Shown here in pieces: positions 9,323 through 44,677 of a stretch of DNA of 48,866 nucleotides (its first letter is position 1; each line of letters opens with the position of its first letter). Made by a program: the position numbers and the translations under genes. The notes beneath the pieces are model-generated. The model saw only the letters and a program-made list of their open reading frames with translations, did not search any database and was not told where the DNA came from. The stretch covers positions 1 to 48,866 of the IMG/VR virus record IMGVR_UViG_3300049170_000045; one strand, given 5' to 3'. The DNA is from a virus (taxonomy: Duplodnaviria > Caudoviricetes).

Positions 9323-9637
9323 TCACTTCGCGTCGGGTTTCTTCTTCGCCTTCAACCAGCGCGTCACCGCATCCACCGTCGCCGAGTCCAGTGACGCGAG
9401 CGCCTGCACGGCCGCGCGGTCGGTTTCCGAGGGCTCGACACCTGCTTCGGCCAGCGCGTCGGTGAGGGCGCGCTTCTCCGCTTCGTCCGCGGGGTCAGGC
9501 CGTTGCCCGCCGGGTGGTACCCGATCCGGCGGCGGGCCCGGGGTCGGCTGCGGTTCGATGAGGCCCAGCTGTACGAGGGACGCCGAGTCGCCGGCGCACT
9601 CGTCCACGCGGCGCGTGACTGCGCGAGGTTCCGGCAT
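9323..9637 (-). CDS. Hypothetical protein
   Basis: GGGAG RBS; last ORF of the lysis cassette. Confidence 0.65.
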   Translation of the reverse strand: MPEPRAVTRRVDECAGDSASLVQLGLIEPQPTPGPPPDRVPPGGQRPDPADEAEKRALTDALAEAGVEPSETDRAAVQALASLDSATVDAVTRWLKAKKKPDAK

Positions 9638-9646
9638 GGGGGCTCC

Positions 9647-10312
9647 CTACCTGTATTGGCGGCGCTGCGGATCGAGAGCCGCCTGCGGCGTCGGTGGGTC
9701 ATCCGTGGGGTCGGGTTGCGGTGCCCCGCTACGGCGGCACACAAGCGCGTCCGGATCGTCGGCGGGCACCTGGAGGCTGTACCCGTCCGGACACGACGGC
9801 CCGGCGGGACCGCGCTCACCGTCGGTGCCGTCCTTCCCCGGCGGACCCGCCGGGCCTTCGGGACCGGCTGGGCCGGGCTCGCCCTGCGGTCCGGGCGGGC
9901 CCGCAGCGCCGTCCGCGCCCGGAGCGCCGTCCTCGCCATCGGCTCCAGGTTCCCCACCCGCACCGTCGGCTCCCTTCATTCCTTCAGCGCCGTCCTCTCC
10001 GGCCGGGCCCGACTTCCCGGCTTCTCCAGGTGGACCCGACTCTCCCCGTTCTCCACGCTCACCCTGAGGACCGCGGGGGCCGGTGACAGACTCCCCGCGG
10101 GAGCCTGGTGGGCCCGCCACGGGTTTCCCGCCGAGCCGCTCGACCTGCGCGGCCAGCGCGTCCCTCGCCTGATTGGCGGTGCGCAGGTCGTGGCTGAGCT
10201 GCTGCATGGTGATGACGACCCATGCCAGCGCGGCAAGGCAGGCGACCGCGGCCAGGGCGAACCATAGATCAGCGCGGCGTCGCGCCTTAGCCGGCGAGGT
10301 GTGAGCCCTCAC
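9647..10312 (-). CDS. Membrane-anchored collagen-like protein
   Basis: N-terminal TM, coiled coil, long G-X-Y run, C-terminal CPDGY...VC. Confidence 0.85.
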
Positions 10313-10656
10313 GCGCCCGCTCCCCTCGTCGAGAGGTACACCTGCAGCAGCACGATGAGCACAGGAACGATCAGGCCCGTCAGGATGAGGCGCCGGTCGG
10401 CACGCCGCTGGTCCTCGACTCGGCGTCGCTCCAGCTCGTCGTCGCGTATCTCCTGCACTCGCTCCGTCTCGATGGCGGTTACGCGCTCGATCAGTTGACG
10501 GTGTACTTCGTCGGCGCCGCGGCGCTCCAGCTCGTATCGCTCGACTGACACCTTCTTTTCGAGCCGTGCACCGTACTCGCGGAGGTCTTCCTTGAGGTCT
10601 GCGTGGATGGCCTCAAGGCGCCGGGCGACCTCGCCGAGGGTCGGCTCGTCGGCCAC
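10309..10656 (-). CDS. Coiled-coil protein with a C-terminal TM (lysis cassette)
   Basis: Charged helix followed by [19 protein letters not shown]. Confidence 0.8.
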
Positions 10657-10668
10657 GTGCTGCTCCGA

Positions 10669-11016
10669 TCAGGCTGCTGTCGGCCTGGCGGGTGCCGCCG
10701 GGGAGACCTGGCCGCGGGTGAGCAGGCCGAGCACGGCGAGTACGACGGCGTTCAGAGCACCGACGGTCTCTTGCGAGACGTCGAGTCCGTAGGCGGCGAG
10801 GAGCGCGACCGCAGCAGCAACGAGTCCGGTGAACGCCGACGGGGCGATTGGCCGGGTGATGGCCGCGGTGGCTGCGGCGAACACCGCGGAGATGACGGCG
10901 ACGATCGTGGCAGCCTGCTCTGCGGACAGTCCGTCGAAGCCGAAGCTGACGAGCAGGGATAGGGCTGCCGACACGGTTGCGATGATGAGGGCAGGCTCGC
11001 GGCCGAAGATTCGCAT
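10669..11016 (-). CDS. Holin
   Basis: MRIFGREPA start, about 4 hydrophobic segments, directly after the endolysin. Confidence 0.8.
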   Translation of the reverse strand: MRIFGREPALIIATVSAALSLLVSFGFDGLSAEQAATIVAVISAVFAAATAAITRPIAPSAFTGLVAAAVALLAAYGLDVSQETVGALNAVVLAVLGLLTRGQVSPAAPARPTAA

Positions 11017-11025
11017 GGGGCTACC

Positions 11026-11775
11026 TCACTTCTTGGGGAGCTTGAGGGTCTGGCCGGCGCGGATGTCGTCGGCGTCGACCAGATCGTTGAGCTGGGCTAT
11101 GTCGCGCCAGCGGTTGCCGTCGCGGAGCTTGGAGGCGGCGATCGACCAGAGGGTGTCGCCCTTGCTGACCGTGTACACGGTGGTCGGCTTGAGGCGGTCG
11201 CGGATCTGTCCGCGCATCCAGTCCATACCGAAGCCGCGCGGGTCGACCTTGCCGGGCTGCCACTCCAGGTGGCCGATGACGGAGCGCTCCGTCCAGCCGT
11301 GGTGGCGGCAGATCGCCGCGGACACGCGCTCGATCGCCTCCAGCTGGGCGGCTGGCCACGGGTCTTTGCCGTCGCCAAGGTTCTCGCACTCGAAGCCGTA
11401 GAAGTGCCGGTTGCCGTCGGTGCTGGTCTCGTTGTCGGCGGGCAGCTTCTGCTCGGCGATGACGGCCTGGAGGACGTCGTCGTCGCCCATCCCTGCGTGG
11501 TTCGTGCGGCCGTAGCCGACGAGGTGGACCCTGCCGTCCTTCGTGATGACGCCGTGGCAGAGCGGGCCCGGCAGACTGCTGTACCCGTCACGGCAGATCT
11601 CGACGGTGCGCTTGCTGCCCGAGGTGACGGTGTGGTGGATCATCACGCCGTGCACCGGCCCCCACGGTCCCTTGTGGTTGCGGTTGTGGGTCTTCCATCC
11701 GGAGACCTCGACGACCGTCACGCCTTCAGCGCGCAGGATCGAGGCAAACGTGGACGCTGAAGGTGCGGTGGCCAT
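11026..11775 (-). CDS. Endolysin: Amidase_2 plus LysM
   Basis: VMIHHT, NHAG, GFECEN, IGHLEW...KVDP; YTVSKGDTLWSIA...IRAGQTLKLP. Confidence 0.93.
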   Translation of the reverse strand: MATAPSASTFASILRAEGVTVVEVSGWKTHNRNHKGPWGPVHGVMIHHTVTSGSKRTVEICRDGYSSLPGPLCHGVITKDGRVHLVGYGRTNHAGMGDDDVLQAVIAEQKLPADNETSTDGNRHFYGFECENLGDGKDPWPAAQLEAIERVSAAICRHHGWTERSVIGHLEWQPGKVDPRGFGMDWMRGQIRDRLKPTTVYTVSKGDTLWSIAASKLRDGNRWRDIAQLNDLVDADDIRAGQTLKLPKK

Positions 11776-11789
11776 GTTCGGCCCCCTCT

Positions 11790-12221
11790 CTAGTAGTCCC
11801 AAGTCATTGCGCTGAACTGGGCGTGTTCGAGTGGCCAGGGCTGGTCGTGGTCGTGCCAGACCTCGACACCGACGTGCTGGTTGGCCTGGCCGGCGAAGGT
11901 CCAGCTGGTGGTCTCCCAGCTGCGGCCAGGGGTTGCGAGGTGGTCGGCGGCTCCGGTGTCGTCACGGATGCCGTGCGGGTCGCGGATGAAGCGGCTCATG
12001 AACTGCCGCGGCCTAACGTCACCTTCGGGGATGTTGAGGGCGGCCCAGCGGAGGTTGCGAAACCACAGGAAGTCCCCGTCGAACGGCGGCATGATCGTGG
12101 TCAAACTGCGGGCCATGCTCCGGTCGTTGCTGAGCACTCGCTCATAGGTGACGAGCGTCCACGTCTCCGGTGGGATGAGCTGCGGCTTTTCACCGCGGTA
12201 GAGCTTGCAGACGGTGGCCAT
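11790..12221 (-). CDS. Hypothetical protein (distal tail/lysis region)
   Basis: AGGAGG RBS, ATG 12221 (MATVCKLYRG...). Confidence 0.7.
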   Translation of the reverse strand: MATVCKLYRGEKPQLIPPETWTLVTYERVLSNDRSMARSLTTIMPPFDGDFLWFRNLRWAALNIPEGDVRPRQFMSRFIRDPHGIRDDTGAADHLATPGRSWETTSWTFAGQANQHVGVEVWHDHDQPWPLEHAQFSAMTWDY

Positions 12222-12229
12222 GACGCCTC

Positions 12230-12850
12230 CTACAGGCTGACGGTGACTCCGTTGAAACCGATCCACGGAGGCTTCACTGACGTCCCGGTGCCGAAGACTT
12301 CGAGGTAGCCGTTTGTCTGCACGTCGAGCTTCAGCGCGATGCGGTCCGAGGAGACGTCGCTGCACGGGATGAGGACCGTGCGCAGCGTCGACGGCCGCAC
12401 CGTGGTGGGCAGAGCGACGGAGTTGATGACGTAGCTCGACGCTGGGCTGCTGGGCCATGAGGAGCGTTCGACCGCCCCGCGGAACTGGAGCGACTCCTCG
12501 CCGCTGATGTTCAGCAGCCGGTACTGGAGCGACCCGTTGCTGTTGCCGTTTTGCGAGAACCCGGACGCCAGGCTGATGGTCGTCCAAGAAGTCGCGCCGA
12601 CGGACAGGGCCACCCACGTCCCGTTGATGCGGGCGTCCAGGCGCTTGATGTCCTGGAGGTAGGTGACCATGCCGTCGACCGGCGCCGCCGCCCCGACGAG
12701 GGTCGCGCCACGGGTCGAGGCTGACGTGAAGCGCATGACCGCGCGCGGGATCAGCCCTGCGGCGAGTGTGCCGAGTTGGCTGGGCAGATCGGGGGCGTCG
12801 GTGAGCGCGGGGAGGCTGATGCTCTGCCCATAGGCATCGGTTGTCGGCAC
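12230..12850 (-). CDS. Minor tail protein
   Basis: AGGAGG RBS; VMRFTSASTR, GMVTYLQD, WTTISLASGF beta-rich domain. Confidence 0.75.
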   Translation of the reverse strand: MPTTDAYGQSISLPALTDAPDLPSQLGTLAAGLIPRAVMRFTSASTRGATLVGAAAPVDGMVTYLQDIKRLDARINGTWVALSVGATSWTTISLASGFSQNGNSNGSLQYRLLNISGEESLQFRGAVERSSWPSSPASSYVINSVALPTTVRPSTLRTVLIPCSDVSSDRIALKLDVQTNGYLEVFGTGTSVKPPWIGFNGVTVSL

Positions 12851-12858
12851 GTGGCCTC

Positions 12859-13521
12859 CTAGCTGAGGGGGTAGCGGATGCCCTTGAGGGAGAGCCAGGT
12901 CGTCTCGGTGTCTCCGGCGGCGGCGGACACGAGCTGGACGGTGCCGTCCGTGTCAAAGTCGCACTTCAGCGAATGGACAACGCTCGTCGAGTTGGCGACA
13001 CCTGTGATCGAGGTGGCGTTACGGGCGATCACGAAAGAAGCGCGGGCAACGGGCCGGAACGTCGACGCGAGCGCGGCGGACAGGATGTTCGAGGTCTGCG
13101 CCCCGGTGGCACGGGTGGCGCCGCCGTCCCACTCCATCCACCAGCCGCCCTGATGGACGATCCTGCGGTAGCGGATGGGCCCGTTGTTGTTGCCCTGGCT
13201 GCTGGTGTTGCCTTGGGTGTAGCCGGTGCCGAGCGTCGCCGTCGTCCAGCCGGGGTCGCCGGAGCTGAGTCGGCCGAGAGCGATCCAGTTGCCGTTGCTC
13301 GACTGGGAGATGACCGCGATGTCGCCGACGAGGGGCATCGTGTACGTGTCCATGCGGCGGCAGACCACGCCGTCGGCGGTAACCGTGGTGGCCGCGACGG
13401 CGGTCACGGTCGCGGTGCGCCAGTCCGCACCACGTACCGACGGCGACCGCTCCCCCGCCTTCTTCGCGGACTGCTGTACCGCCCAGGCCAGGTCACGGGT
13501 AGAAGCGTGTGCGGAATTCAC
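12859..13521 (-). CDS. Minor tail protein
   Basis: N-terminal OB-like segment (YTMPLVGD...WIALG); C-terminal domain resembles the next gene. Confidence 0.75.
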   Translation of the reverse strand: MNSAHASTRDLAWAVQQSAKKAGERSPSVRGADWRTATVTAVAATTVTADGVVCRRMDTYTMPLVGDIAVISQSSNGNWIALGRLSSGDPGWTTATLGTGYTQGNTSSQGNNNGPIRYRRIVHQGGWWMEWDGGATRATGAQTSNILSAALASTFRPVARASFVIARNATSITGVANSTSVVHSLKCDFDTDGTVQLVSAAAGDTETTWLSLKGIRYPLS

Positions 13522-14609
13522 GCGTCCTCCTTCGCGGAGATCGTCGTGATCGGGAAGTCGCCCCCCTCGTCGAGCGGCACGGAAAACGAGGCGACCTGAT
13601 GGAGCTCGCGGGTGCCGTCCGGGTGTGTGACGCGCAAGACATCGCCCGGTTCGAGCGCCGGGTTCGGCAGCGACGAGATGTCACCGCTGGCGTTGGGTGC
13701 CTTGGCCTTGGCGAGTTCCAGGCCGGCGGCCTGCGTGCACGCGTTGACGGTGGTCAGCGTTGAGGAGCTGTAGAACTTCGGGCGGCGGCCGAACGGTCCA
13801 CCCCAATACGTGGGGCTCCCGGTGTCGTCGTCGACGACGAGCGCGGCGACCGGGGGCGCGTTGTCGCTGGTGTTCTCGCCGCGTGCGAGCACACCGTTGT
13901 ACACGGCGTCCGATGTCATGGCGCGGTTGCCGGATATGTAGGCGCCGCTCTCGCTCGCCTCGATGGCCCAGACCGGCTCGGTGGTCAGCAGGTCAGGCAG
14001 TGTGGCGATCACGAAGACTCCGTCGGCGTTCGTGTAGACCTCCGCGCCGGCTGCGGCAGCGATCTCCTGTGCGCCCGCCCATGGGTCCGCCTCGACATCG
14101 AACGTGCGGCTGCCGATAGGGGTATCGGTGATGGTGGATATGACGTCGGCGTCCGGGATGGACCGCTGGATGAGTGCGGTGACGGCGCCGACGACGGTGC
14201 CGGTGGCCCGGTAGGGCTCGGTGAGCTTGTCGTCGGCGACGCACGCTTCCAGGCTTTTGCCTTGGAGGTTGACGGGCCCGTCGGTGACGTCGCCGTCAAC
14301 CGAGTCGAGCCGGAACACGCCGACGGGCACCAGTTCGCTGCTGCCGTCGCCGTACTCGACGCCGCGGGCGATGCGGAGCCGTGCCCCGTAGGTCGCCAAC
14401 TTGTCGGTGGGGGTGCGCGGGATGAGGGCTGGGTCCGGGCAGGTGACGGTGCATGTGCGGCGGATGGCCTGCCCGCGGTCGACGGTGACCGAGCCGCCTG
14501 TGTGGTCCAGGTCGACGACGCGGCCGTCGGTCAGGAACAGTTGGACGCGCGTGGCGACTCGGTGGGATTCGGTGAGGCGGGTCAGGAATCGTTCGGACAC
14601 GGGGTACAT
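13518..14609 (-). CDS. Minor tail/baseplate hub protein (DUF5047-like)
   Basis: GGSVTVDRGQAIRRT, PVGVFRL, PNPALEPGD; second gene after the tape measure. Confidence 0.8.
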   Translation of the reverse strand: MYPVSERFLTRLTESHRVATRVQLFLTDGRVVDLDHTGGSVTVDRGQAIRRTCTVTCPDPALIPRTPTDKLATYGARLRIARGVEYGDGSSELVPVGVFRLDSVDGDVTDGPVNLQGKSLEACVADDKLTEPYRATGTVVGAVTALIQRSIPDADVISTITDTPIGSRTFDVEADPWAGAQEIAAAAGAEVYTNADGVFVIATLPDLLTTEPVWAIEASESGAYISGNRAMTSDAVYNGVLARGENTSDNAPPVAALVVDDDTGSPTYWGGPFGRRPKFYSSSTLTTVNACTQAAGLELAKAKAPNASGDISSLPNPALEPGDVLRVTHPDGTRELHQVASFSVPLDEGGDFPITTISAKEDA

Positions 14610-14613
14610 GGCG

Positions 14614-16851
14614 TCACCCCGTTCTGCGGTCCAGGAGCAGATCCTCGGTGGTGGCGTAGACGGGCAGCAGGTCCGCCCACGTCGCGAACTCGGCGACGAT
14701 GTCCTGCCAGGTGTGGCCCGCTGAGCCGTTAACGCCGGTCGTGACGGGCATGTCCGCCTCGGTCAGTGGCAGGGTCCATGCCCGCCACGGTTCCTGTGCG
14801 GTGCCGCCGGTGCGGGCTTCGGTGGCCTGGCCGACGCTGACGTACATGTCGGTGACGCCCATGCCGGGAACGGCCTGCCAGAGCAGCACGTTTCCGGAGT
14901 TGAGCAGGAGGTGCAGGGCGAGACGCTCGCTGTCGGAGCGGGTCCAGATCGACAGATCGCCTTCGAGGCCTTGCCGCCGCCCAGACAAAATGACCTTGTT
15001 GCGGCGCCCCTTGACGACATAGGCCGTCTGCTCGATGGGGCGTGTCCAGTCCGGCGCCGACTGCACCATCACCCGCAGATTGCGCTGCGGGTTGCCGGGG
15101 TCCTTCAGCCACGCCTCCTGCGCGTCGGCGAGGATGACCTGCACCAGGTCCGAGCTTCGGGAGGAGGCGTATGCGCCTGCCGCATCGTAGAACTGCAGGC
15201 GGTATCGGACCGGAGTGTTCATCGGTGCTTCGTGGTCTTCGATCACCATCAGGTCGGACGTGATCGGCTGGCGGTCGATGAGTCCTGCGGGGCCGCGCAC
15301 GAGTGTCCCGATGCTGTCCGGTGTCTCCCGGTACAGGCTGAGCCGATGGTCGACGGGCAGTTCCCGCAGGGTGAGGGTGATGTAGCCGCCGTCGGTGTCC
15401 GCGGTGGCGATGGTCTGCGGCAGCACCTGCCAGAGGAGGGCCTTGTCGACGTGCAGCACGCTGTTGGCAGCTGACGCGGTAGCCGTAAGTTCGATCGCGG
15501 CCTGAGTGGCGTTGGCTGGGGCTGCAGCGTCGGTGGGCATGGCGTACCAGGCTGCGGCGCCCGGCACGGTCCAGGTGGTGCCGCTACTGGCGCCCAGGTC
15601 GACGTTGGCGGCGTCGTACCAGCGCAGTTTGACGTTGACCGACGTCCAGGACCCGGCGCCTGGGCGAGCGGCGATCTGGGCGCGCCAGTTCAGGCCTGCG
15701 CCGCCCGGCGTCGGGAATCGTGCTGATCGGATCACGCTAGCCGTGGCGGTGGCCGAGGTGATGGCCATGGAATAGCTGCCGTCCAGGGCGACCACGCCCC
15801 ACGGGGTGGAGCGGGCCAGGGTGGCTGCCCCTGAGACTGTCGCCCATCCCCCGAGGCCCTGCTCCATCGAGCCATCGGCATACGGGACGACGGTGCCCGA
15901 CTGGAGCGAGGGTGCGACGGAGATGACGACCGTCTCCAGCCGCAGCACCTGGCCCGCGCTCGCCCCGGTCAGCCCTGCGGCGGCACTAGCCGTGGCCGCA
16001 TTGGCAGGGGCGACCATAGATGCGATCTGCCGGTACATGCCCGTCCCCGGCGCCGCGAGCGTGGAGCGCTGCGCCGCGATCTGCGTGCCGGTGCTGTCGT
16101 AGAAGCGCAGCTCAATCCACGCCTGGGCCGCAGCCGCGGGCGGCTGGAGATAGGCGTGAGCGGCGTACTCGACACCAGGGCTGGCGCTGGGCCGCCCGAC
16201 GGCGAGCGCGGACGCGTTACCCGCCACGACCGCCGTGATAGCCAGCGTGCTCCCGCCGGCGAGGTAGTTGTCGACGGCCCACTGCACGACGGGCGCCTGA
16301 CGGGAGACCGTCGCGTTGGTCTCGGCCGCCCAGCCGCTGGCGTCGATCTCCATGGACTCGGTGCCGAATCCGAAGAGATTGCCGCTCGTGCGGATCGGCA
16401 GACCGAGGTAGACGTTCTCCCAGTAGTGGCTGACATTCCCCGCCGTCTCGGTGGAGGACAGCAGCACCTGGGCCGTGGCGCCGCCGACCGGAGCGGCGCC
16501 TGCGACGCCGACCCGGTGCCACGACGAAGAGGCGGCTGCTGTGGTCAGAGACCACGTAATGCCGATCTCGGTGCCCGCCGAATTCAGCCAGCGGATGCCG
16601 ATCCTCTCGGGCACCGCGCCTGCCGAGTCCGCGAACACTTGGTAGACGGTGCCGACGACGACCGGGTAGGAGGAGACGGTGCGGGCCTGGACCTCTCCCG
16701 ACAGCAGGGACTTGGTGACCAGGACACCGTCCCCGTTCCGCCCTCCGGTCCCCTTCACAAGAGGACCGCAGTTGGACTTCATCGTCCACCCGCTGGTGTT
16801 CGGGTCGATGGACTCCGTCGTCGGGCTGAGGAAGTTCCCGGGAATCGGCAA
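14614..16851 (-). CDS. Distal tail-like protein with three carbohydrate-binding-like repeats
   Basis: Repeats start ESIDPNTSGW / ESMEIDASGW / GSMEQGLGGW; first gene after the tape measure. Confidence 0.75.
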   Translation of the reverse strand: MPIPGNFLSPTTESIDPNTSGWTMKSNCGPLVKGTGGRNGDGVLVTKSLLSGEVQARTVSSYPVVVGTVYQVFADSAGAVPERIGIRWLNSAGTEIGITWSLTTAAASSSWHRVGVAGAAPVGGATAQVLLSSTETAGNVSHYWENVYLGLPIRTSGNLFGFGTESMEIDASGWAAETNATVSRQAPVVQWAVDNYLAGGSTLAITAVVAGNASALAVGRPSASPGVEYAAHAYLQPPAAAAQAWIELRFYDSTGTQIAAQRSTLAAPGTGMYRQIASMVAPANAATASAAAGLTGASAGQVLRLETVVISVAPSLQSGTVVPYADGSMEQGLGGWATVSGAATLARSTPWGVVALDGSYSMAITSATATASVIRSARFPTPGGAGLNWRAQIAARPGAGSWTSVNVKLRWYDAANVDLGASSGTTWTVPGAAAWYAMPTDAAAPANATQAAIELTATASAANSVLHVDKALLWQVLPQTIATADTDGGYITLTLRELPVDHRLSLYRETPDSIGTLVRGPAGLIDRQPITSDLMVIEDHEAPMNTPVRYRLQFYDAAGAYASSRSSDLVQVILADAQEAWLKDPGNPQRNLRVMVQSAPDWTRPIEQTAYVVKGRRNKVILSGRRQGLEGDLSIWTRSDSERLALHLLLNSGNVLLWQAVPGMGVTDMYVSVGQATEARTGGTAQEPWRAWTLPLTEADMPVTTGVNGSAGHTWQDIVAEFATWADLLPVYATTEDLLLDRRTG

Positions 16852-16861
16852 GGTGACCTCC

Positions 16862-19800
16862 TCAGCCAGCGTTGAGCATTCCGATCAGCTCGCCCTGAGC
16901 GGTACGGACCTCGGTACGGGCAATGTCGGTGATCTCGCGGTCGCCGACGTACACGGACACGTGCAGGTCACCGATGCCCCTGCTGCCGGTGGCGGCGGTG
17001 AGCGTGTCCCACTGCCCGCCCGTCAGTACCGGCTCCGGGCGTCCGGTGCCGTTGTAGGCGAGGTTGAGGCCGGGTTGGAGCATTCCGCCGGAGTCGTACC
17101 AGTGCGGGCTCCTGGACTGCCATTTCGCCCAGGCCTTGGCTGGACTGCCGTAGTCCGGGCGGTCCTTGATGTAGCCCATGCCCCAGCGGATCTGCGTTTT
17201 GGCGTTGGTGCGCCAGTCCGCGCCCGCCGACCTCATCTTGTTGGCAGGGAGGGATTGCGGGATGCCGTAGGCCCCGGAGCTGGGGTTTTTGGCGTTCCAG
17301 CGCCAGGCGGACTCGTGATGCCACAGGTTCTTGAGTGGTCCGAACTGGCTCCGGCCCCAGCCGTAGCGGCCGAGGATGGACTTGGCGTAGCGCTGTGCGG
17401 CGCCGACAGCTTGGGCGAGGAAGCCGCCCCCGCCTGTCAGGTAGGGCATGGGGTCGACGGCGCCGCCTCCTCGGCGCGCTTCGAGGTGGAGGTGGGGGCC
17501 GGTGGTGTTGCCGGTGGCGCCGACGCGGCCGATCTGGTGGCCGCCGAGGACTCGGTCACCTCGACTCGTCATGATCTTCGACAGGTGGGCGTACAGAGAG
17601 TCCAGGCCGCCGCCGTGGGAAACCGTGATGTGGTTGCCATAGGGGCCGCCGCTGCCGACCACGCTGACGCGGCCATCGTCAACGGCTCGGACGGCGGTGC
17701 CGGTGGCTGCCGGGAAGTCGAGGCCGGTGTGACGGCCGGAGGACCACATGGAGCCCCGCACGCCGAAACGCGTGCCGTAGGGAGCGTCGACAGGCTTTTG
17801 CCAGATTCCTCCACCGCCTCCGCTGCTGCCGTCGAACATTGACGACACCGCGTTGACGATTTTGTTCTTCAGCCCTGAGATCATCTTCAGCGGGATCTTG
17901 CCGATGGCCGCGCCCCACTTACCCGCAGTCCCTACCCCTTTGCCGATCTTGTCGACGACAGGCTTGACCAGCTTCGTCCAGATCTTGCTGGGATTCGTCA
18001 GCAGGTCGGCGCCCGCCTTGGCCCAGTCGATGCCTTTGCCGACGACATCGGAGACGGTGTCCTTCGTCCAGTCCCAGGCACCACCGATCGGTCCCAGGAC
18101 TCCACCCCGAGCCATCAGCTTCGTGCCCGCTGCCGCATGCAGGGCCTGCGCCCGGCTTCGGTACTTAGGGTCGGTGGGGATGACGAACTCGGGATACCTC
18201 GGGTTGCCCTCACCGACGATCGCGGTGGGCCGGTTGGTGACCATCGGCTTGGCAGGGCCAAAGCCGTCCCCGACAGTGCCGCCCGCGGCAAGGAGCTTCG
18301 GCGCGTCGGGCAGCTTCTTCAATCCGACGAATCCGGCGACCTTGTCCCAGACGGCCTTGATGCCCTTCGTGTACACCCACTTGATCACGAAGTTCACGGG
18401 TTCGGCTGTGATCTTCTTGATCTTGCCGAAGGCTTCAGCGATCGCGTCCTTCGCGGTCTCGAAGGCGTCACCGACAAGCCGCACCGCCCGCTTCACCTTG
18501 TCGAAGGCAGGCTTCAGACCCTTGCTGTACAGCCACGTCGCCCGGTCGGCGATCCACCCGAACGACGGCTTGATCGCGCTCCGGTATAGCCATGTCGCCG
18601 TACCGCCGATCCCCCGCAGCGCTGGCTTGACAGCCTTCTCGTGCAGCCACTTCCCGATCTGCGCCACAAACCGGAAAGCCGCGACGATACCGTCCATCGC
18701 AGGCTTCAGCGCCACCTGGTACAGCCAGCTGCCCGTCGAGGCGATGCCCTCGAACGCCGGCTTCAAGGCGGCGTCGTACAGCCACTTGCCCGCAGCTCCG
18801 ATGGCGCGGAACGCCGGCCCTAGGGCCTTCTCCCACAGCCACGTTCCGACCGCTCCCGCCGCCTGGAAGGCAATGACGAGGGGCGCGATCAGGACCACCG
18901 CGATAATGCCGATAAGGATCCGCGCAGCGAGAGAGATCCCCTCAAAGGCGGGGCCGATGGCGTTCCGCCACAGCCACGTCGCGACTGCGCCGACGGCCCG
19001 CGCGGCCGTGATGATGCCGTCGAAGGCGGGCTTCAGGGCGTTGTTCCACGCCCAGGATGCCGCCGTCTGAATGCCGCTCCAGGCGGCCTGCACGCCGGTG
19101 CGGAACCAGGCGAACTTCTTGTAGGCGTAGACGACTGCCGCGACCAGCGCGACGATCGCGACGCCCAGCAGCACCACAGGGTTCGTGGACATCACCAGGT
19201 TGAAGGCGGCCATGGCGATGGTCCACAGCTTGGTCGCGATGTACGCGAGGTACATGCCCTGGATCAGCCATGGCAGCGTTTCAGCGATCGACGCCAGCCC
19301 GCGCGCCGCAGCGCCGAGGATCTCCAGGATCGGGCCTGAGAGCGGCGCCAGTGCCTTGCCCAGTTGATAGAACGCTGAGCTGATGTCCCCGAGCGCGCGG
19401 GCCATGATGGGCCCCTGCTCGGACGAGTAGGACAGGAAGTTCTCGAAGGCGGGGCTGCCTTTGAGGCTGGTGCCCCATGCCGCGAAGCGTCCAGTGATGG
19501 TCTGCATCCGCTTCGAGATGGAGTCCATGTGCGGCAGGAAGGCCTGGACGACGCCTGCCATGCCCTTGAAGATCCGGCCGAAGGAAACGCCCAGCCCGAT
19601 GATCGCGGGCTCGGCCGAGCCCGCTAGATCCGCCTTGAACTCCTTCCACCACGGCGACTTGAAGCCGCGTGAGGCCCGATCCTGCAGCTCGACGATCGCG
19701 CGCGCCGCGGCCAGCACGAACGGCGTCAGGCCAGGCAGCGAGTTCTTCAACCCGATCAGGGCACGCGTGAAGATCGGCATCACCGCAGGCTGCAGCGACG

Positions 19801-21694: not shown

Positions 21695-21714
21695 GGAGCC
21701 CCCTCTCCGCAGCG

Positions 21715-23136: not shown

Positions 23137-23206
23137 GAGATGTCTCCAGACATGGAAGAGCCCGCGCACGGGCGGGGAAAGGGTCCGGCGCGGGCCCGAA
23201 AGCCGG

Positions 23207-31976: not shown

Positions 31977-31999
31977 GGCGACCACCACCCTTCAAGATC

Positions 32000-32286: not shown

Positions 32287-32305
32287 ATCTGCCTCCCTCT
32301 GCGCC

Positions 32306-32500: not shown

Positions 32501-32505
32501 GTGGA

Positions 32506-32700: not shown

Positions 32701-32704
32701 GTGC

Positions 32705-33207: not shown

Positions 33208-33234
33208 GGGCGCGGGCCTTCCGTGTCGTAGCGG

Positions 33235-33777: not shown

Positions 33778-33792
33778 GACGGTCTCCTCGAA

Positions 33793-34606: not shown

Positions 34607-35062
34607 TCAGAGACGGGTGGAGCTGCGGCCCCACCAGCGGTTGATGTTGGTGACGTTGTAGGTGTCGCCGCCGTGCTTGCCCCCGAAGCGGGTGGCCAGG
34701 AGCAGCAGGGCAAGGACAAGGACCGCGCTGGAACCACTGAATGCGGCGATGCCCGCGGCGGCTTGGCCGAAGCCCCAGCCGATGCCAGCACCCGCGGCGC
34801 CAGCTCCGACGCCCGCGCCGCACAGACGGGCCGCGATTGGGTCGATGAGCGGCTGCGGGGTGAGGTCACGGGGCGGAGCAGGCTGCACGGCTTCAGGGGC
34901 CTGGGACTTGCGCATGGGGACCATCTCGCCGTAGGCGGACGGCACCCAAACGATCGGGTCACGTTCCGCGCGCAGCTCGACGAGACTGTCGTAGGTCTGG
35001 GGGTTCCGCTGCCCGGACGGGGCGGCGTAACGCTGGTACCGCTCAGGCAGCGGACTGGACAT
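34607..35062 (-). CDS. Spd-like membrane protein
   Basis: Pro-rich N-terminus, Gly-zipper TM pair, NVTNINRWWG tail; downstream of traB. Confidence 0.65.
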   Translation of the reverse strand: MSSPLPERYQRYAAPSGQRNPQTYDSLVELRAERDPIVWVPSAYGEMVPMRKSQAPEAVQPAPPRDLTPQPLIDPIAARLCGAGVGAGAAGAGIGWGFGQAAAGIAAFSGSSAVLVLALLLLATRFGGKHGGDTYNVTNINRWWGRSSTRL

Positions 35063-35735: not shown

Positions 35736-35905
35736 CTGACAGCAGAGAGGTGTCAGAAGGGGGTGTCAGTGGGGTGTCAGCTCGCGCGCGCACGCGCATT
35801 GACCTAAGGCGGGGCGGGGTGTCAGCGGTTCTGACACCCCCGCTGACACCTTGATCCACTGCCGACAGGCGTCAGTCGGGTGTCACCGCAGGTCAGAAGC
35901 GTCAG
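35736..35905. repeat. clt-like array of GGTGTCAG/CTGACACC 8-mers (candidate TraB recognition sites)
   Basis: Perfect copies at 35749, 35762, 35773, 35818, inverted at 35831 and 35843; near matches at 35736, 35868, 35879, 35898; directly 3' of traB. Confidence 0.8.
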
Positions 35906-37908
35906 TCGATGTGGGCCATCGTCGGGTAGAGCAGCCGGTAGGTGCCCGGCTCGTCGGTCTCCTCCAGGTGCCTGCCTTCGTCGGCGAGCTCGGTGAGTGC
36001 CTCCGACAGCCAGGCCCTGGAACGGCCGTAGCGACCCGCCTTACCGTGCGGCTGGAAGTGCCGCGGCCCGACCTTGGTCAGGCCCTGCTCGCGGAACTCG
36101 TCCAGCATCATGTGCAGTTCGGCCTCAGCCTCCGCGCGCGTCTTCCCCTTCTGCGGCTCCGCCGGCTTCCCGAACTGCCACACCTGGTCGGCGGGGACGG
36201 GCTCGAGCGGCTGCTCGGCGTCGACTTCCGGCTCGGGGCCGCCCTCGTCACCCGGCACCAGCGCGTCGATCTCGCGGGCGACCTGACGGTCGAGCAGGGC
36301 CTCCTCCTCTCGCTCCTCGTCGTCCTTGGTCATGACGGTCTCCTTGGTGTCGATGCTGGTCAGGGACTGGCCGGGCAGGTAGATCTTGCGGTTGGCGTAG
36401 GCCTCACCTGCGGCCATGGTCGTGGTGGGCCCGGCGGGGGTAGGCGTGTAGAAGCGCTCCAGGACGGCGCGGATGTCGTCGTCGGTGATCGGGTTCCAGG
36501 TGCGGGCCTTCATGGCGTACCGCTCCTCGTCGACACCGGGCGCGACGAGGTAGTTGTAGCCGGGCTTACGGTTCTCCCACGCTTCCGGGCGGGCGCCGGC
36601 GTCGCGTACATCGTCCGGGAGCGCCATGTCGGCGGTGGTGGAGCCTTTCACGCCGAAGCAGAAGGCCCCGCCGAGCTGTTCACGCACGTCAGTAGGCATG
36701 GACGTCGCCGACGGCCGCTGCTGGCTGACGATGACGCTGCCGCCTGCGGAGCGCAGGGCTTCGACGACGGCTTCAAGTTCGGCGCCGTCCCGGAAGAACT
36801 TCGCGGACTCCTCGATCCACACGATCAGGTAGGGCATGCCCAGCTTGTCGTAGGCCTCCGGCGTCCAGTTCTTGAAGCCGTGACGTCCAAGTTCGTCGGC
36901 GCGGGCTGTGATGACCTGCGGCAGCGCGTCGATCATGGCGTTGCCGCCGGGCATCGTCATCTCCACCCAGTCCAGGTAGGGCAGAAGTGGGCCGAGGGTC
37001 TGCATGCCCTTCGCCGCATCGATCGCCCACACGATGGCGTCACGCCTGGTCAGGGCCTCAATGATGGCCCACGTCATGCCGGTCGACTTGGCGGAGCCGT
37101 TCATGCCGGTCACGGAGAAGTGCGTGGCGTTGCGGCGCGCCTTCTCGTCGGCGGGGAACCAGAACTGCTCAGTCTCCCCGTCCTCATAGATGCCGACCTG
37201 CACCGGCTCTGTGATCGAGGCACCCGGCGCGGACGGGCCCGGGTAGGGGGCACCTTCGGTGAGCATGTCCTTGGGGATGAACACGAACTCGCCCTCGGCG
37301 GCGTTCTCGGGGTCCGGCACGATGCGGATGCTGTTAGGGGAAATTCCCAGCTCACCGGCAATGTTGTTGATCCGGTTGCCGAGGTCAGCGTTGGTCAGCT
37401 CGCCGCCGGCCAGCTTGTAGGCGGCAGTCACCTTGTTCGGCTCGACCTTCGGCTCGCCCTTCAGCGCGGCCTTGGCCTTGCCCAGGGACTTGACCAGCAG
37501 CCCCGTCTCACTGGCAGCCTGCTCGCGCTCGCCGACGTCCGGGTTGACGCGCAGGATCTGCCTCATGTTCCAGCCGCCCGCCGCCACCATCCCGCCGATC
37601 GCCCATGTCGAGGCGAGGAAGGGGTCCAGCGGATCGGTGACAGTCGCGATGACGAGGTAGGACGTGCCGACCGCAGTGGACAAGGTGGCGTGCAGTCGGC
37701 GCGGCTTCGATGTGCCCTCCCCCGCCCACCATGTCGTCGCGGTCAGCACACCCGCCCCCACCGTCAAGGCCGCGCCGGCGAGGGGCGACCCGCCCCACAT
37801 GGCGTGCATGCCGACAGCGGCAGGCATCGAGGCGGCCGTGGCCAGCCATGGGCGCATACGAGGGTGCTTGAGGGCCTTGTAGAGATCAGCCTTAGGGGTG
37901 TCAGCCAC
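35902..37908 (-). CDS. traB: TraB conjugative DNA translocase (FtsK/SpoIIIE-like)
   Basis: N-terminal TMs; Walker A GMNGSAKS; IDAAKG; Walker B IVWIEE; SQQRP; C-terminal wHTH (SRAWLSEALTEL...PGTYRL). Confidence 0.9.
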   Translation of the reverse strand: MADTPKADLYKALKHPRMRPWLATAASMPAAVGMHAMWGGSPLAGAALTVGAGVLTATTWWAGEGTSKPRRLHATLSTAVGTSYLVIATVTDPLDPFLASTWAIGGMVAAGGWNMRQILRVNPDVGEREQAASETGLLVKSLGKAKAALKGEPKVEPNKVTAAYKLAGGELTNADLGNRINNIAGELGISPNSIRIVPDPENAAEGEFVFIPKDMLTEGAPYPGPSAPGASITEPVQVGIYEDGETEQFWFPADEKARRNATHFSVTGMNGSAKSTGMTWAIIEALTRRDAIVWAIDAAKGMQTLGPLLPYLDWVEMTMPGGNAMIDALPQVITARADELGRHGFKNWTPEAYDKLGMPYLIVWIEESAKFFRDGAELEAVVEALRSAGGSVIVSQQRPSATSMPTDVREQLGGAFCFGVKGSTTADMALPDDVRDAGARPEAWENRKPGYNYLVAPGVDEERYAMKARTWNPITDDDIRAVLERFYTPTPAGPTTTMAAGEAYANRKIYLPGQSLTSIDTKETVMTKDDEEREEEALLDRQVAREIDALVPGDEGGPEPEVDAEQPLEPVPADQVWQFGKPAEPQKGKTRAEAEAELHMMLDEFREQGLTKVGPRHFQPHGKAGRYGRSRAWLSEALTELADEGRHLEETDEPGTYRLLYPTMAHID

Positions 37909-37960
37909 GGTGTCAGCTCCGATGTCAGAACGCTGTCAGTGCAGGTGGGAGGGGTGTCAG
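37897..37960. repeat. Second GGTGTCAG cluster at the traB start
   Basis: GGTGTCAG at 37897, 37909, 37953; GATGTCAG at 37921; GCTGTCAG at 37932. Confidence 0.75.
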
Positions 37961-38103
37961 CGGATCTGGGCCGCGACGAGCAGATAGAGGCCGAAGAGGA
38001 CGACGGCGGAGGTGAAACCGTCGCGGACAGGGACGCAGTACTCGTGGCGGAGCCACAGTGCGTACAGGCCTGCCGCGACGGCCGCGACCACGAGATCGAT
38101 CAC
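37957..38103 (-). CDS. 48-aa two-TM membrane protein
   Basis: GTGA overlap with traA; MIDLVVAAVAAGLYALWL...AVVLFGLYLLVAA. Confidence 0.6.
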   Translation of the reverse strand: MIDLVVAAVAAGLYALWLRHEYCVPVRDGFTSAVVLFGLYLLVAAQIR

Positions 38104-38783
38104 CAGGACTTCCAGGCGCTGTTGCTGCGCTGCCGCCCGCCCTGGCGGGGCTCGCCGCGGCGGCGCCCGCTGCTGATCTGCGCCAGCTCGGCCTCGAACT
38201 CGCGGGTGAACGACGACCACAGGGCAGCGGACTGCTTCGCGATCAGCTTCTCGGCAGCGGCGATCCGCTTCAGATGCCGGGACACACGGCGCGCCCGCGC
38301 CCTGGAGCCCGACAGCGACCCGTGCACGTCGGGAATGTTCCGCAGCGCCGACTCCAGCGTCTCGGCATCCAGCGCCCGCTCCACCGCGCGGGGCCGGGCC
38401 TGCTTACGCAGCGACTCGCAATACGCGCGGATGTCCTCATCGCTCGTGAACCCCGACCCCGGGGTGGCCCGGTGGCCGCCTCCCCCGCCACCGGCCGCCC
38501 CTTGTACGACGGTGGTCTTGTTGATGCTGAAAGTCAGCGGGGGCAGTGACACATCGGGGGCGAGGTTAACCTTGCCGATCTCCACCTTGGTGTTGCGGGA
38601 GGGGCGGTTCTGCCGGTTCCGTCGAGCCCGCTCATTGCGGCGGAGCTCCGCCGCATCTGCGACGCGACGGCCGTGGACCCAGGTAGCGTGCCCGGGTGAA
38701 CCCAGAGTCGGCGGATAGTTCGGCCGCGGCGGAACATTCGGAACGTTCTGCCCCGCGTGCGCGGAACCGTTGGTGATGGCCAT
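38100..38783 (-). CDS. traA: Plasmid transfer protein TraA-like
   Basis: FTSDEDIRAYCESLR...RARARRVSRHLKR...FEAEL; directly upstream of traB as in Streptomyces plasmids. Confidence 0.7.
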   Translation of the reverse strand: MAITNGSAHAGQNVPNVPPRPNYPPTLGSPGHATWVHGRRVADAAELRRNERARRNRQNRPSRNTKVEIGKVNLAPDVSLPPLTFSINKTTVVQGAAGGGGGGHRATPGSGFTSDEDIRAYCESLRKQARPRAVERALDAETLESALRNIPDVHGSLSGSRARARRVSRHLKRIAAAEKLIAKQSAALWSSFTREFEAELAQISSGRRRGEPRQGGRQRSNSAWKSW

Positions 38784-40009
38784 CAGACGGTGCTCCTGTC
38801 GAGAGAAACGGAACTACGGGGCTCGCGGCCAACAGCCGCGGTATCGGTGCGCTCGCCCGCTTGGGAGAGTGCGGCAGTGCGGACCTTCCGTCCGTAGCGG
38901 TCGCTGGTGCCAAGCTTCTTGCCGATGTCGGCCCCGGACAGGTCCGGATCGGCGTCCAGCCAGCGGAGGGCGGTACGGACGTGTTTGTCGAATGCGGTGC
39001 TCTTGCTGTTGGGGCTGGTCTTGCGGCGTGTCCGCCGTGCCGGTTCCGGGGTGCCCTGTGGTTCCGGCCCCGGGCCTGGATCCGGCACGGCTTGTAGTTC
39101 CGGGCGTGGTTCCGCCCCGGCCGGAACCTGGCGGCGGTCGCGGTCCGGAACCGGAACGAGGACGACCCGGGCCGGAACTGGTTCCGCCCCCGGACCGCTT
39201 TCCGGTTCCGCCTCGAACGGCGACAGCAGGGCGATAGTCGAGAGAGATCCGGCGGATCGCCGGGCCGCCAACTGGCGCAGCAGAACATCCCGCTGCACCG
39301 GGTCGGTACCGGCTCCGGAGCGTGCGACGGCAGCGGCCAAACGGCGCCTGCCCCAGCTACGGAGATTCCCCCGGGAGGCGAGGCGCACCGCGCGGACGGT
39401 CGCCCGGTCCCGGGTGATCTGTTCCGCCGTGCGGTCCCTCGTCGCCAGACCCAGGCGCGACAGCAGTCGCTCCCTGAGCTCGCGGGCAATGATTGCCGGC
39501 AGGCTAGACGAGAGGGCGCCAGGCTTGGCGTGCCACAGCTCCAGTCCCATCGCCATGTGCCACAGCACTGCGGCCAGAACCGGACCAACCACTGCGCGCA
39601 CCGTGCCGCCCAGCACGCCGGACTCGGTGTAGGCGGGAATGACCTGCACCAGGGTGACGGCCCATACGAGCAAGCCCGGCGTGCCTGGAGTGCCGCGCTC
39701 CCGCAGGTTCTGCCGCGCCATAAGCGCACAGGCGAAGAGCGCGAGTTCAGCGGCGGCGAACATAGCTGCACGTTCCAACGTCTCGGTCATTCCGAGCCTG
39801 TGCTCGGCGAACCGCCAGGAGGTGTCGGCCGAATAGGCGGTGCAAGCGCCCGCGGCGAGGGAGGCGACCAGGACCGCCACGGGCGGACGCCTGCGGTCCT
39901 TCCGGGAACGGCGACGCAGGCCGAACCAACTCAAAGCCAGCACGGTCAAACCCGCGAGCACCAACCACTGCTCCCGCGCCATCGTTGCCAGATCCCCGGC
40001 GCTCACCAT
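38783..40009 (-). CDS. SpdB-like spread protein (multi-TM, Pro-rich linker, C-terminal HTH)
   Basis: YSADTSWRFA, MFAAAELAL, GPVLAAVLWH; LSGADIGKKLGTSDRYGRKV. Confidence 0.72.
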   Translation of the reverse strand: MVSAGDLATMAREQWLVLAGLTVLALSWFGLRRRSRKDRRRPPVAVLVASLAAGACTAYSADTSWRFAEHRLGMTETLERAAMFAAAELALFACALMARQNLRERGTPGTPGLLVWAVTLVQVIPAYTESGVLGGTVRAVVGPVLAAVLWHMAMGLELWHAKPGALSSSLPAIIARELRERLLSRLGLATRDRTAEQITRDRATVRAVRLASRGNLRSWGRRRLAAAVARSGAGTDPVQRDVLLRQLAARRSAGSLSTIALLSPFEAEPESGPGAEPVPARVVLVPVPDRDRRQVPAGAEPRPELQAVPDPGPGPEPQGTPEPARRTRRKTSPNSKSTAFDKHVRTALRWLDADPDLSGADIGKKLGTSDRYGRKVRTAALSQAGERTDTAAVGREPRSSVSLDRSTV

Positions 40010-42251: not shown

Positions 42252-42511
42252 CAGGGTCTCCCTAGCAGGTACCTGATTGGTCAGGGCCGGTGCGTGCGCG
42301 ATGTAGGAGTCGCAAGCGTCCGGCCCGTTTTCATTTGTGGAGCGTCGTCCGCGGACTGGGTCCGGTAGGAGTGGACGACTGACAGCGATCTAAAGTCGAG
42401 ACTTGAGAGCCGCTGTGTAGAAACGTAGAGGCTCGGCGTCGGCCCGTCAACCCAACTCGCAGTATCGAACGGGTTCTTGAGGAGTCGCAGGTCGACCTTT
42501 ACGCTCCCTAC

Positions 42512-42754
42512 ATGACCGACTCCCTCGACAAGGCTCTCGCTCCCCTGGCAACCCACATCCGGGCGATCGACGACTACCCGACGCGGTACCAGGAGATTGA
42601 GGCCGCCGAGGAGCGGTTCCGGGCGCTTAAGCGGCTCCTGCTGCAGGAGACCGCCCTGGGGCTGCGCGCCGAGGGAAAGAAGTGGAAGGAGATCGGCGCG
42701 ATCATGGGCGGCGTCACGTACCAGCGCGCCTTCCAGATCGGTCACGGTGAATGA
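42512..42754 (+). CDS. Small HTH regulator (probably leaderless)
   Basis: LRAEGKKWKEIGAIMGGVTYQRAFQI; TACGCT 6 nt before ATG; divergent from the transfer operon. Confidence 0.78.
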   Translation: MTDSLDKALAPLATHIRAIDDYPTRYQEIEAAEERFRALKRLLLQETALGLRAEGKKWKEIGAIMGGVTYQRAFQIGHGE

Positions 42755-42905
42755 GTGGCGGTTCATGGGATCGAGTCAACGCTTACTCGGACGCGCAGCC
42801 CATGAAGCGACCGTGCACCCGCATGCAGTGATCACGCAGCGGACATGCAGGCAGCATGCAGGTCCAGCGAAATAGCCCCCACGATCTTCGGGCGGGGAGC
42901 CGATA

Positions 42906-43541
42906 GTGGATGTCACCCAGTGGACCGGACGGCACGCGTGCTGGCTCCAGGACGCGTTCGAAGACACGCAGGAGGAGTTCGCGGGACGCCTTGGCGTCTC
43001 CGTGCGCAGCGTCGCTTCCTGGCACAAGTCGCCGGACATGGTCCCCAAGCTGGAGACCAGACGGATTTTGAACACGGCACTCGAAAGGGCAGGTGATGCG
43101 GTGCGTCGGCGGTTCATCCACTACACGCGCGTCCACGTCGAACGCGTCCAGGCGCAGGCTCTGCGCGTGGCGATCGCCGTGGTCCGTCGTGGCGACGAGG
43201 TCCTCCTCGTCTGCCGCCAGGACGGCGACGAGATCAGCTGGCAATTCCCAGCCGGCATCGTGAAACCCGGCGGCTCGGCGGCGAAGGTCGCGGTCCGCGA
43301 GACCCTCGATGAGACCGGGGTCCACTGCACCGTCCGCGAACATCTGGGTGAACGCCTGCACCCTGTGACCAGGGCTTACTGCGACTACTACGTATGCGAC
43401 TGGCTTCACGGCGAGGCGATCAACGGTGATGAGTCCGAGAACGCCGCCGTGGCTTGGGCGCCGATACGGGACCTCGCCCGGTACATCCCGACCGACCGCA
43501 TCTATCCGCCGATCTTGAACGCCTTGGAGGCGACAGCGTGA
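42906..43541 (+). CDS. XRE-HTH fused to a Nudix domain (degenerate Nudix box)
   Basis: TQEEFAGRLGVSVRSVASW; WQFPAGIVKPGGSAAKVAVRETLDETGV. Confidence 0.88.
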   Translation: MDVTQWTGRHACWLQDAFEDTQEEFAGRLGVSVRSVASWHKSPDMVPKLETRRILNTALERAGDAVRRRFIHYTRVHVERVQAQALRVAIAVVRRGDEVLLVCRQDGDEISWQFPAGIVKPGGSAAKVAVRETLDETGVHCTVREHLGERLHPVTRAYCDYYVCDWLHGEAINGDESENAAVAWAPIRDLARYIPTDRIYPPILNALEATA

Positions 43542-43954
43542 GCGAGACCAGCACCGAGAAGCCCGGCATCAGCGCAGCCATCATCGTCCAGGACGGCCGT
43601 GTCCTCATGGTCCGCCGGGCTGTGAAGGAGGGCGAGTTGATGTGGCAGTTCCCCGCCGGCGCAATCGAGGACGGCGAGACCGCCGAGGAGGCCGCAGTGC
43701 GCGAGACGCTCGAAGAGACCGGCCTGAAGGTCGAGGCGATCAAGCTCCTCGGAGAGCGCGTCCACCCCAAGACGGGACGGCTCATGTCGTACACCGCCGC
43801 CGAGGTCTTGGACGGTGAGGCGCGCGTCGCGGATGACGAGGAACTCGACGCCGTCGCGTGGGTGGCTCACTCCGAGATCAACGAATACGTCCCCTACGGT
43901 CTGTTCGAGCCGGTGCAGGAGTACCTCGACCACGCACTGCCGCAGGAGGTCTGA
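43538..43954 (+). CDS. Nudix hydrolase
   Basis: Canonical GAIEDGETAEEAAVRETLEETGL; GTGA overlap. Confidence 0.92.
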   Translation: MSETSTEKPGISAAIIVQDGRVLMVRRAVKEGELMWQFPAGAIEDGETAEEAAVRETLEETGLKVEAIKLLGERVHPKTGRLMSYTAAEVLDGEARVADDEELDAVAWVAHSEINEYVPYGLFEPVQEYLDHALPQEV

Positions 43955-44677
43955 GTGAGCGAGCGCACCGCGCTGTACCGCCTCTACGACGTTGCCAACC
44001 GACTGCTGTACATAGGGATCGCCAAAGATCCAGAGGTCCGCTGGCGGGGGCACGCGGATTCACCCACATCACCGTGGTGGCCTCAAGTGGAGCGCAAGGA
44101 ATTCGAGTGGTTCCCATCCCGGGAAGCCGCTGATGAAGCCGAGACGGTCGCCATCGCGACTGAGCAGCCGCTACACAACCGCGCCAAGGTCGCGATGCAC
44201 CGTAGGCCGAGCTACGGGTTCTGGGGAATCCGGTCGCAAGAAATCAACCGAGCCAGGGCGAACCAGATTCCCCTGTCGCAGCAGGTAGCTAACGTTCTGC
44301 GGGCCGACATCACGGAGGGGCGGATCCGGCCCGGCGATCAGATGCCTAGCGGTCGAATGTTGTTTCGTCGATTCGGCGTCACCGAGAACACGTGCTATCT
44401 AGCGCTGCGGAGACTCGCCGATGAGGGACTCTGCTTTCAACCACGCCCGCGAGGTCGCTTTGTCTGTACGGACCCGACCGCAGGGGCACAGCCCTCGACT
44501 CACGCACCGTCACCGATTCCCGTAGGCGACGAAAGCCTGGTCTACCGAACCTTCCGCTTCGCCGTGAACCATCCAGCCAAGGGTGCGGCTCAGATTCGCT
44601 CCAAGATGTCAGACGAACAGTGGTCCGCCTTCGTAGCTGCCGTCGCAGAGATCGACGGCCAACCCCGCGCTGCCTGA
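43955..44677 (+). CDS. GIY-YIG nuclease-like domain fused to a GntR winged HTH
   Basis: ALYRLYD...LLYIGI...R...H...E..AI..EQPLHN; LSQQVANVLRADITEGRIRPGDQMPS...FGV. Confidence 0.85.
   Translation: MSERTALYRLYDVANRLLYIGIAKDPEVRWRGHADSPTSPWWPQVERKEFEWFPSREAADEAETVAIATEQPLHNRAKVAMHRRPSYGFWGIRSQEINRARANQIPLSQQVANVLRADITEGRIRPGDQMPSGRMLFRRFGVTENTCYLALRRLADEGLCFQPRPRGRFVCTDPTAGAQPSTHAPSPIPVGDESLVYRTFRFAVNHPAKGAAQIRSKMSDEQWSAFVAAVAEIDGQPRAA

Follow-up and report, generated by a model that had tools for sequence, protein, structure and literature searches.

A TraB transfer module within an integrating Streptomyces-type siphophage and its probable use in moving phage DNA without virions

The 48,866-base stretch of DNA analysed here, hereafter the window, is the whole of the virus record IMGVR_UViG_3300049170_000045, and it is most of one temperate, chromosome-integrating Streptomyces-type siphophage in its attP-joined form, cut within the early arm. 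It joins a block of transfer genes (tra), encoding TraA, the FtsK-like double-stranded DNA (dsDNA) translocase TraB and membrane proteins, to a tailed-phage virion and lysis operon and to an integrase with its attP. Open reading frames (ORFs) of the window were scanned with family profiles (70 against Pfam and PHROGs, 30 against NCBIfam), and the virion and lysis genes below were assigned with Pfam and PHROGs. The features on which the argument draws are as follows.

34607-42251, minus: tra block
34607..35062, minus: putative spread-type membrane gene
35749..35885: candidate clt locus, 137 bases long, 3' of traB, with seven TGACACC, direct and inverted
35902..37908, minus: TraB, FtsK-like dsDNA translocase, 668 amino acids (NF041214, 792.8 bits)
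37897..37959, minus: three further TGACACC at the traB start
38100..38783, minus: TraA (NF041213, 102.9 bits)
38783..40009, minus: SpdB-like membrane protein, 408 amino acids
40003..42251, minus: small genes heading the tra operon; no family match in Pfam, PHROGs or NCBIfam; several recur beside Tra in relatives
42512..43954, plus: divergent cassette of a small gene, a helix-turn-helix (HTH)-Nudix gene (42906-43541) and a Nudix gene (43538-43954); PF00293
43955..44677, plus: GIY-YIG nuclease fused to a GntR HTH, without UTRA
9323..12233, minus: lysis end, with collagen-like gene, holin and amidase-LysM endolysin
12230..25056, minus: siphophage tail and connector genes, including the tape measure (16862-21694), the tail assembly chaperones with GGGAAAG at 22161, and the tail tube (22549-23169)
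25066..29958, minus: GT4 glycosyltransferase, major capsid (26067-27026), scaffold, VG15/protease and SPP1-type portal
29883..31510, minus: large terminase split over two frames, with GGGAAAA (31295-31289), within Walker A, as the site of a likely -1 frameshift
31497..34041, minus: terS, HNH (32705-32998), S-adenosylmethionine (SAM) methyltransferase and MerR-like HTH
67..342, minus: Cro/Xis-like HTH, first gene of the missing early arm (HTH_3, E 2e-5); same place in integrase relatives
479-1021, plus: putative repressor, its role deduced; no family match in Pfam, PHROGs or NCBIfam; syntenic in integrase relatives
1179-1610, plus: conserved 143-amino-acid gene ahead of int; no family match; syntenic in integrase relatives
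1621..2982, plus: tyrosine integrase (PF00589; phrog_1, E 1e-37)
2938..3311: attP, arm-type repeats around a core

A capsid, portal, terminase, long tape measure and tail tube are present and a sheath is absent among the Pfam and PHROGs matches, which marks the virion as that of a siphophage; its capsid is no more than 37% identical to the best match among cultured phages. A preliminary description of this DNA had announced a siphophage virion and lysis operon, and that operon is confirmed at 9323-33207 on the minus strand, but its large terminase gene (terL) is not one ORF, the frame changing within Walker A. The same description had placed traA and traB upstream of the operon and co-oriented with it, and both genes indeed lie on that strand, about 3 kb upstream of the HNH gene, with matches to NF041213 and NF041214.

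TraA scores above the NF041213 cut-off of 80 bits. The identity of TraB as an FtsK/SpoIIIE-type Tra protein rests on NF041214 and on its FtsK fold, the predicted model (16 sequences, mean predicted local distance difference test score, pLDDT, 68) comprising N-terminal helices, a motor resembling FtsK (E 6e-15) and a C-terminal winged-helix-like domain. The dN/dS of traB is 0.16-0.44 in six pairs. At three other loci (L004, L012 and L016), the neighbouring gene just 3' of traB holds another short stretch that matches the C-terminal region of TraB.

The clt-like repeats of the preliminary description were also found, as seven copies of TGACACC 3' of traB and three at its start. The window total of 12 copies is not above chance, as 6 of 100 shuffles reach 12, but the clustering is: it is the densest 7-mer cluster in the window, and in 20,000 trials with 12 randomly placed sites a cluster of five arose once and clusters of six or seven never. 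Three to ten copies occur 3' of traB in 16 of 16 TraB relatives, and TGACACC is the DC1 repeat of the mapped clt of pWTY27 (PMC3583192). The TGACACC cluster beside traB may, on its sequence, be classed as a clt-like locus. A densest-7-mer scan beside Tra genes of other clades returned 4-9 copies, yet it had no null model and missed the known pWTY27 clt, and it was not used as evidence.

Membrane genes of the spdB type, likewise proposed before, are borne out in part. The protein of 38783-40009, with three hydrophobic segments, matches pZL12.73 (30% over 256 amino acids, E 3e-15), and that of 34607..35062, with one hydrophobic segment, matches the pWTY27 gene preceding traA (39% over 132 amino acids, E 9e-21), but the former finds pSVH1 SpdB2 just at E 0.0055, a weak match. 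Two further statements did not survive: the Nudix and GntR genes had been described as co-oriented with the operon, but both the Nudix pair (42906-43954) and the GntR gene (43955-44677) lie on the plus strand and are divergent, and the likening of the GntR gene to KorSA was rejected, as its HTH is fused to a GIY-YIG nuclease and has no UTRA. Among control genes beside Tra in 23 elements, GntR-UTRA was found in 13, the HTH-Nudix and Nudix pair in seven, neither in three and both in none; this lack of co-occurrence suggests that the two are alternative control cassettes. The GIY-YIG-GntR fusion recurs beside tra in G001, G002, G360 and G024 and may be a selfish nuclease or one aimed at competitors.

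The element's own integrase and attP (1621-3311) lie outside the range 9323..44677 that the preliminary description had covered. The integrase is 59-69% identical to its eight best chromosomal matches. In attP, arm-type repeats at 2938-2959 and 3264-3311, conserved in relatives, flank a core. This core (about 3050-3181) is a copy of the 3' end of a rhamnogalacturonan lyase (RGL11) gene (PF21348, E 5.8e-14); over 110 nt it shares 88% identity with the host's RGL11 gene adjoining int in G159. Integration would restore this protein-coding target and not a tRNA; the RGL11 target was seen in G159 only, one of eight close integrase loci, and G360 and G433 use other sites. A tRNA or tmRNA was considered as att target and rejected, none being found within the 48,866-base window or at 20 integrase loci.

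In relatives, traB lies within the att-bounded limits of terL-containing prophages. G002, whose TraB is 84% and whose intact terL is 77% identical to the window's, is an 88-kb prophage between perfect 53-bp repeats (27801 and 115676), with host genes outside them; G433 and G360 have the window-type integrase, with Tra between the early arm and the late operon, and repeats of 19 and 29 bp enclose them. The circular, 61-kb record G045 shows the gene order of the window together with DnaB, RecT, YqaJ and beta-clamp, and its nud2-to-xis distance is 19 kb versus 5 kb in the window. The window record showed neither a repeat at its ends nor closure into a circle, and the Pfam, PHROGs and NCBIfam scans found no replication gene in the window, the early arm being missing from the record; DnaB, RecT or beta-clamp was found in the relatives G001, G045, G360 and G433.

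To place the module in its family, a sample of 40 records was taken, comprising every record of at least 45 kb among the best 80 of 275 terL relatives and among the 35 integrase loci. NF041214 matched 22 and PF01580 12 of these 40, together 26. A Tra profile built from 18 proteins, 17 of them out of the 40 records, extended this to 29 records, each with exactly one Tra-like ATPase, including 24 of 28 near-complete records and five of five with terminal repeats. In 17 of 19 elements, Tra shares the strand of terL and is located 5.6-21 kb upstream of it. Three Tra queries found almost no matches among 50,697 cultured-phage records.

The Tra proteins fall into several clades in a quick tree that carries long-branch warnings: the window's groups with those of G002, G001 and the plasmids pCQ3 and pCQ4, beside pJV1 and pWTY27, and four others group with pSVH1 TraB (44.6% identity). 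As to the comparison of phylogenies suggested in the preliminary description, Tra and terL identities are uncorrelated across 21 elements (rho 0.07, p 0.15); in G024 and G011, terL identity is 93-94% but Tra identity 22-23%. Because the pumps fall in several plasmid clades and are unlinked to terL relatedness, Tra, as far as these comparisons go, is a swappable module of the phage family, drawn from several plasmid clades. Separately, the A variant of Walker A occurs in several Tra clades.

Based on the gene content and order, the attP anatomy, the att-bounded position in relatives, and the prevalence and interchangeability of Tra described above, we propose that the traA-traB-clt-spd block, which lies between the early arm and the packaging genes, probably serves to pump the excised dsDNA circle of the phage into neighbouring or fused hyphae without virions. 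Given the precedent of pZL12, spread by both virions and conjugation is a reasonable inference. In pSVH1, traB is the only gene whose loss blocks transfer, and the spd genes drive spread (PMC4447253). By analogy with pSVH1 and pWTY27, the steps might be as follows. First, Int and Xis would excise the phage circle. TraB hexamers, docking on the TGACACC repeats by their C-terminal winged helix, would then drive the double-stranded circle into a hypha that has fused, whereupon the Spd-type membrane proteins would spread it across cross-walls and Int would re-integrate it at the RGL11 gene end, restored by attP. Replication would come from the phage's own DnaB/RecT-type early arm, present in relatives, and not from a Rep protein of the kind found in the integrative and conjugative elements of actinomycetes (AICEs), and the HTH-Nudix/Nudix pair may fill the regulatory or immunity role held elsewhere by GntR-UTRA. 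In lytic growth the entire genome, including tra, would be packaged with TerL made by the -1 frameshift.

Several observations weigh against this proposal. TraB falls slightly below the NF041214 cut-off of 800 bits, with positions 2-637 of 639 aligned (TraB proteins of the window's clade in G015 and G030 exceed it); it has no Pfam match, PF01580 included; its Walker A (residues 268-275, 36164-37110 region) reads GMNGSAKS, with AKS and not GKS, as also in G001 and G002; and a hydropathy scan found zero segments above 1.5 in it. No UTRA domain, and hence no KorSA/TraR-type repressor, was found in the window. As to the family, 17 of the 29 profile-positive proteins were in the profile's own alignment, Tra is absent from four of the 28 near-complete relatives (G012, G013, G026 and G046) and so is dispensable, and it lies on the opposite strand in G031 and G032. 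The record lacks at least 10 kb, so that the completeness of the element is unproven; G130 is only partly mapped, and in the partial map of G171 Tra was not found in the element.

The main alternative, which we consider unlikely, is that the block moves phage DNA only across cross-walls or into spore compartments of one infected mycelium, with no inter-mycelial mating. SpdB2 homologues on phiC31 and VWB have been proposed to spread phage DNA, TraB acts in intramycelial spread too (PMC4447253), and the missing KorSA/TraR-type regulator would suit such a role; but the window keeps the full traA-traB-clt set of the pJV1/pWTY27 clade, the dependence of pSVH1 transfer on traB alone speaks for mating, and pZL12, of the same layout, is cited as conjugative (PMC3583192).

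Far less probable is a defective phage, in which terL is broken and the element persists like an AICE while its virion genes decay, as the frame change inside Walker A and the absence of the early arm from the record might be taken to indicate. The zero frame of terL reads to KGWGK and stops 44 codons on, and in the -1 frame the sequence goes on as SPVLAA over 468 codons; the GGGAAAA shift site lies on the minus strand at the position listed above. Among 76 readable terL genes at 85 loci examined, the GGGAAAA shift was found in seven (the window and six relatives), but GGGAAAA in none of 68 in-frame genes, the one remaining gene being broken at a TTA; one further case of the shift turned up in 401 Streptomyces genomes, and scanning the viral collection for the pattern gave the same six records only. 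Past the shift, the dN/dS of terL is 0.03-0.08 at dS 0.5-1.4. A sequencing error or pseudogene was rejected, given the conserved GGGAAAA shift, the purifying selection past it and a unitig without differences. An RNA stimulator 3' of the slip site is unsupported (fold z-score -1.13), and synonymous variation just past the site is not reduced (0.67 versus 0.74). A frameshift screen showed no adjacent out-of-frame matches elsewhere, a weak result, as it missed terL too and left several regions uncovered. Because the split terL keeps the conserved GGGAAAA and purifying selection past the shift, TerL is likely joined by a -1 programmed frameshift at GGGAAAA, and the virion operon is probably alive by this route.

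No description of such a -1 shift in terL was found in the open-licence literature, supplements excluded. In the Streptomyces phage Hau3, TerL is made by a UUA-linked bypass of 10-nt inserts (PMC10732093, PMC5009743), and its large terminase is broken at the same KGWG/K junction as in the window, whereas the window's terL has no insert or TTA and only the GGGAAAA heptamer with a one-base frame change. At another locus (L095, about 9960-10000), terL is broken at the same Walker A junction by a TTA codon and a short insert, resembling the Hau3-type bypass.

That the block is a separate AICE or plasmid, inserted in the prophage and moving independently, is still more improbable and largely refuted. 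The window's TraB clusters with the TraB proteins of plasmids, and Tra identity does not track that of terL, which implies that the block came from plasmids or AICEs by recombination. In keeping with the preliminary description, however, the tra block has no rep, second integrase or border of its own: the Pfam and PHROGs scans of the window found neither gene, and the longest repeat bounding the block is 12 bp. RepSA was found in none of the 40 related records, with five of five control genomes positive; RepAM and Prim-pol, checked by Pfam scans of the window and of selected ORFs of six relatives only, were not found in them, nor were ParA, ParB or Rep families among the window ORFs or 187 selected ORFs of six relatives. 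The largely fixed slot and strand (17 of 19) and the single Tra per positive record also stand against independent movement. One unitig spans 19605-38665, from capsid to traB, with zero differences, in a read run that may be the record's own source, and depth is 263-409 across the record in contigs of the same, possibly source, run. Therefore, with tra inside att-bounded prophages, RepSA in 0 of 40 and a unitig from capsid to traB, the view that the tra block belongs to the phage as one element, already taken in the preliminary description, is supported by sequence comparison. An assembly chimera of phage and plasmid, conceivable for a metagenomic record matched by a run that may be its own source, hardly deserves belief, since that unitig spans the junction and the same junction occurs in isolate chromosomes and sequenced plasmids.

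Spread by virions and spread by conjugation are commonly assigned to distinct mobility classes. With a Tra pump in 24 of the 28 near-complete relatives of this integrating phage, their combination seems to be common, though overlooked. Surveys of AICEs require that a Rep gene be present (PMC3218068), and a phage-plasmid survey looked for relaxase and mating-pair formation (MPF) systems (PMC7969092). If the proposed transfer is true, such prophages could get into hyphae that are resistant to phage, and their spread need not kill these. This work describes the prevalence of Tra and the exchange of its clades and regulators, maps attP and points to likely recoding of the terminase. On a wider reading, which is doubtful as a whole, conjugation by TraB would be a regular second mode of life for a large, uncultured family of integrating Streptomyces phages, which would exchange TraB/clt specificity cassettes with plasmids; in the window's sub-lineage the -1 frameshift would throttle TerL and steer excised circles to mating over packaging; and an integrated clt could carry host chromosomal DNA with it, so that prophages would bring about gene transfer on a large scale, bypassing receptor-based phage resistance.

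The remaining features lie away from the transfer module.

3349..9128: accessory region 3' of attP, with Xre, GntR, Ku (5709-6608), HNH and serine resolvase (8496-9128) genes (Pfam/PHROGs)
48222-48784, minus: two small overlapping genes, toxin-antitoxin-like by size and sequence style; no family match in Pfam, PHROGs or NCBIfam

The accessory region also comes after int in circular and linear relatives, and in the window it includes both a Ku DNA end-binding gene and a serine resolvase. In and next to the virion operon, the GT4 gene (25066-26067), between the capsid and head-tail adaptor genes, and the SAM methyltransferase gene (33235-33777), upstream of HNH, are conserved in many relatives and possibly act in virion glycosylation. 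A scan for sigma-70 promoters and terminators was uninformative.

Among the closest known systems is pZL12 (NC_013420), in which an FtsK gene (71), gene 72 and the membrane gene 73, the 30% match of the window's 38783-40009, immediately precede the terminase-like genes on their strand, and a GntR gene is divergent. A 2010 report by Zhong and colleagues (J Bacteriol 192:3747) on this plasmid-phage, pZL12 or phage ZL12, reportedly names replication, transfer and a plasmid/lytic cycle in its title. However, pZL12 is a 90-kb plasmid with parAB, whereas the window's family inserts itself at att sites of arm-core-arm build, and early genes of DnaB/RecT type serve its relatives. The two TraB proteins are distant, that of pZL12 giving no tblastn match and 74.9 bits to the Tra profile. 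As the one studied Streptomyces exception, pZL12 has been called a singleton (PMC7157519).

The closest plasmid TraB proteins are those of pCQ4 (NC_019307; 63.7%) and pCQ3 (NC_013449; 63.2%), 85-kb Streptomyces plasmids of the same TraB clade, whose TraA is 44% identical to the window's and which carry TGACACC repeats 3' of traB. Their gene order is also that of the window, running from GntR and small genes through traA and traB to terminase, portal, capsid, tail and lysis, but they are circular plasmids (with ParB/AAA in pCQ4) with another head and tail family, and have a GntR-UTRA regulator where the window has the Nudix pair. No paper on a phage cycle of pCQ3 or pCQ4 was encountered; a description of an integrating TraB phage family or its prevalence was not found in the open-licence literature, supplements excluded.

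In pWTY27 and pJV1, TraB forms the sister clade (35-38% identity) and the clt 7-mer of pWTY27 is identical (PMC3583192), yet these elements are small, carry a rep gene of their own and have no virion operon, a lone capsid gene being found in pWTY27. With AICEs such as pSAM2, the window shares a tyrosine integrase with attP just downstream, Tra and Nudix genes (PMC2440964, PMC3218068), but RepSA is absent from all 40 relatives, a KorSA-type GntR-UTRA is absent from the window, the attP core points to a lyase gene and not to a tRNA, and the window carries a full virion operon. Therefore, judged by gene content, the element is pZL12-like in its workings but not a member of that type by its mode of maintenance, and it is not an AICE, having no Rep. 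Elements that join virion genes to TraB are already known from the layout of pZL12, pCQ3 and pCQ4, and what sets the window's family apart from them is integration together with phage-type replication.

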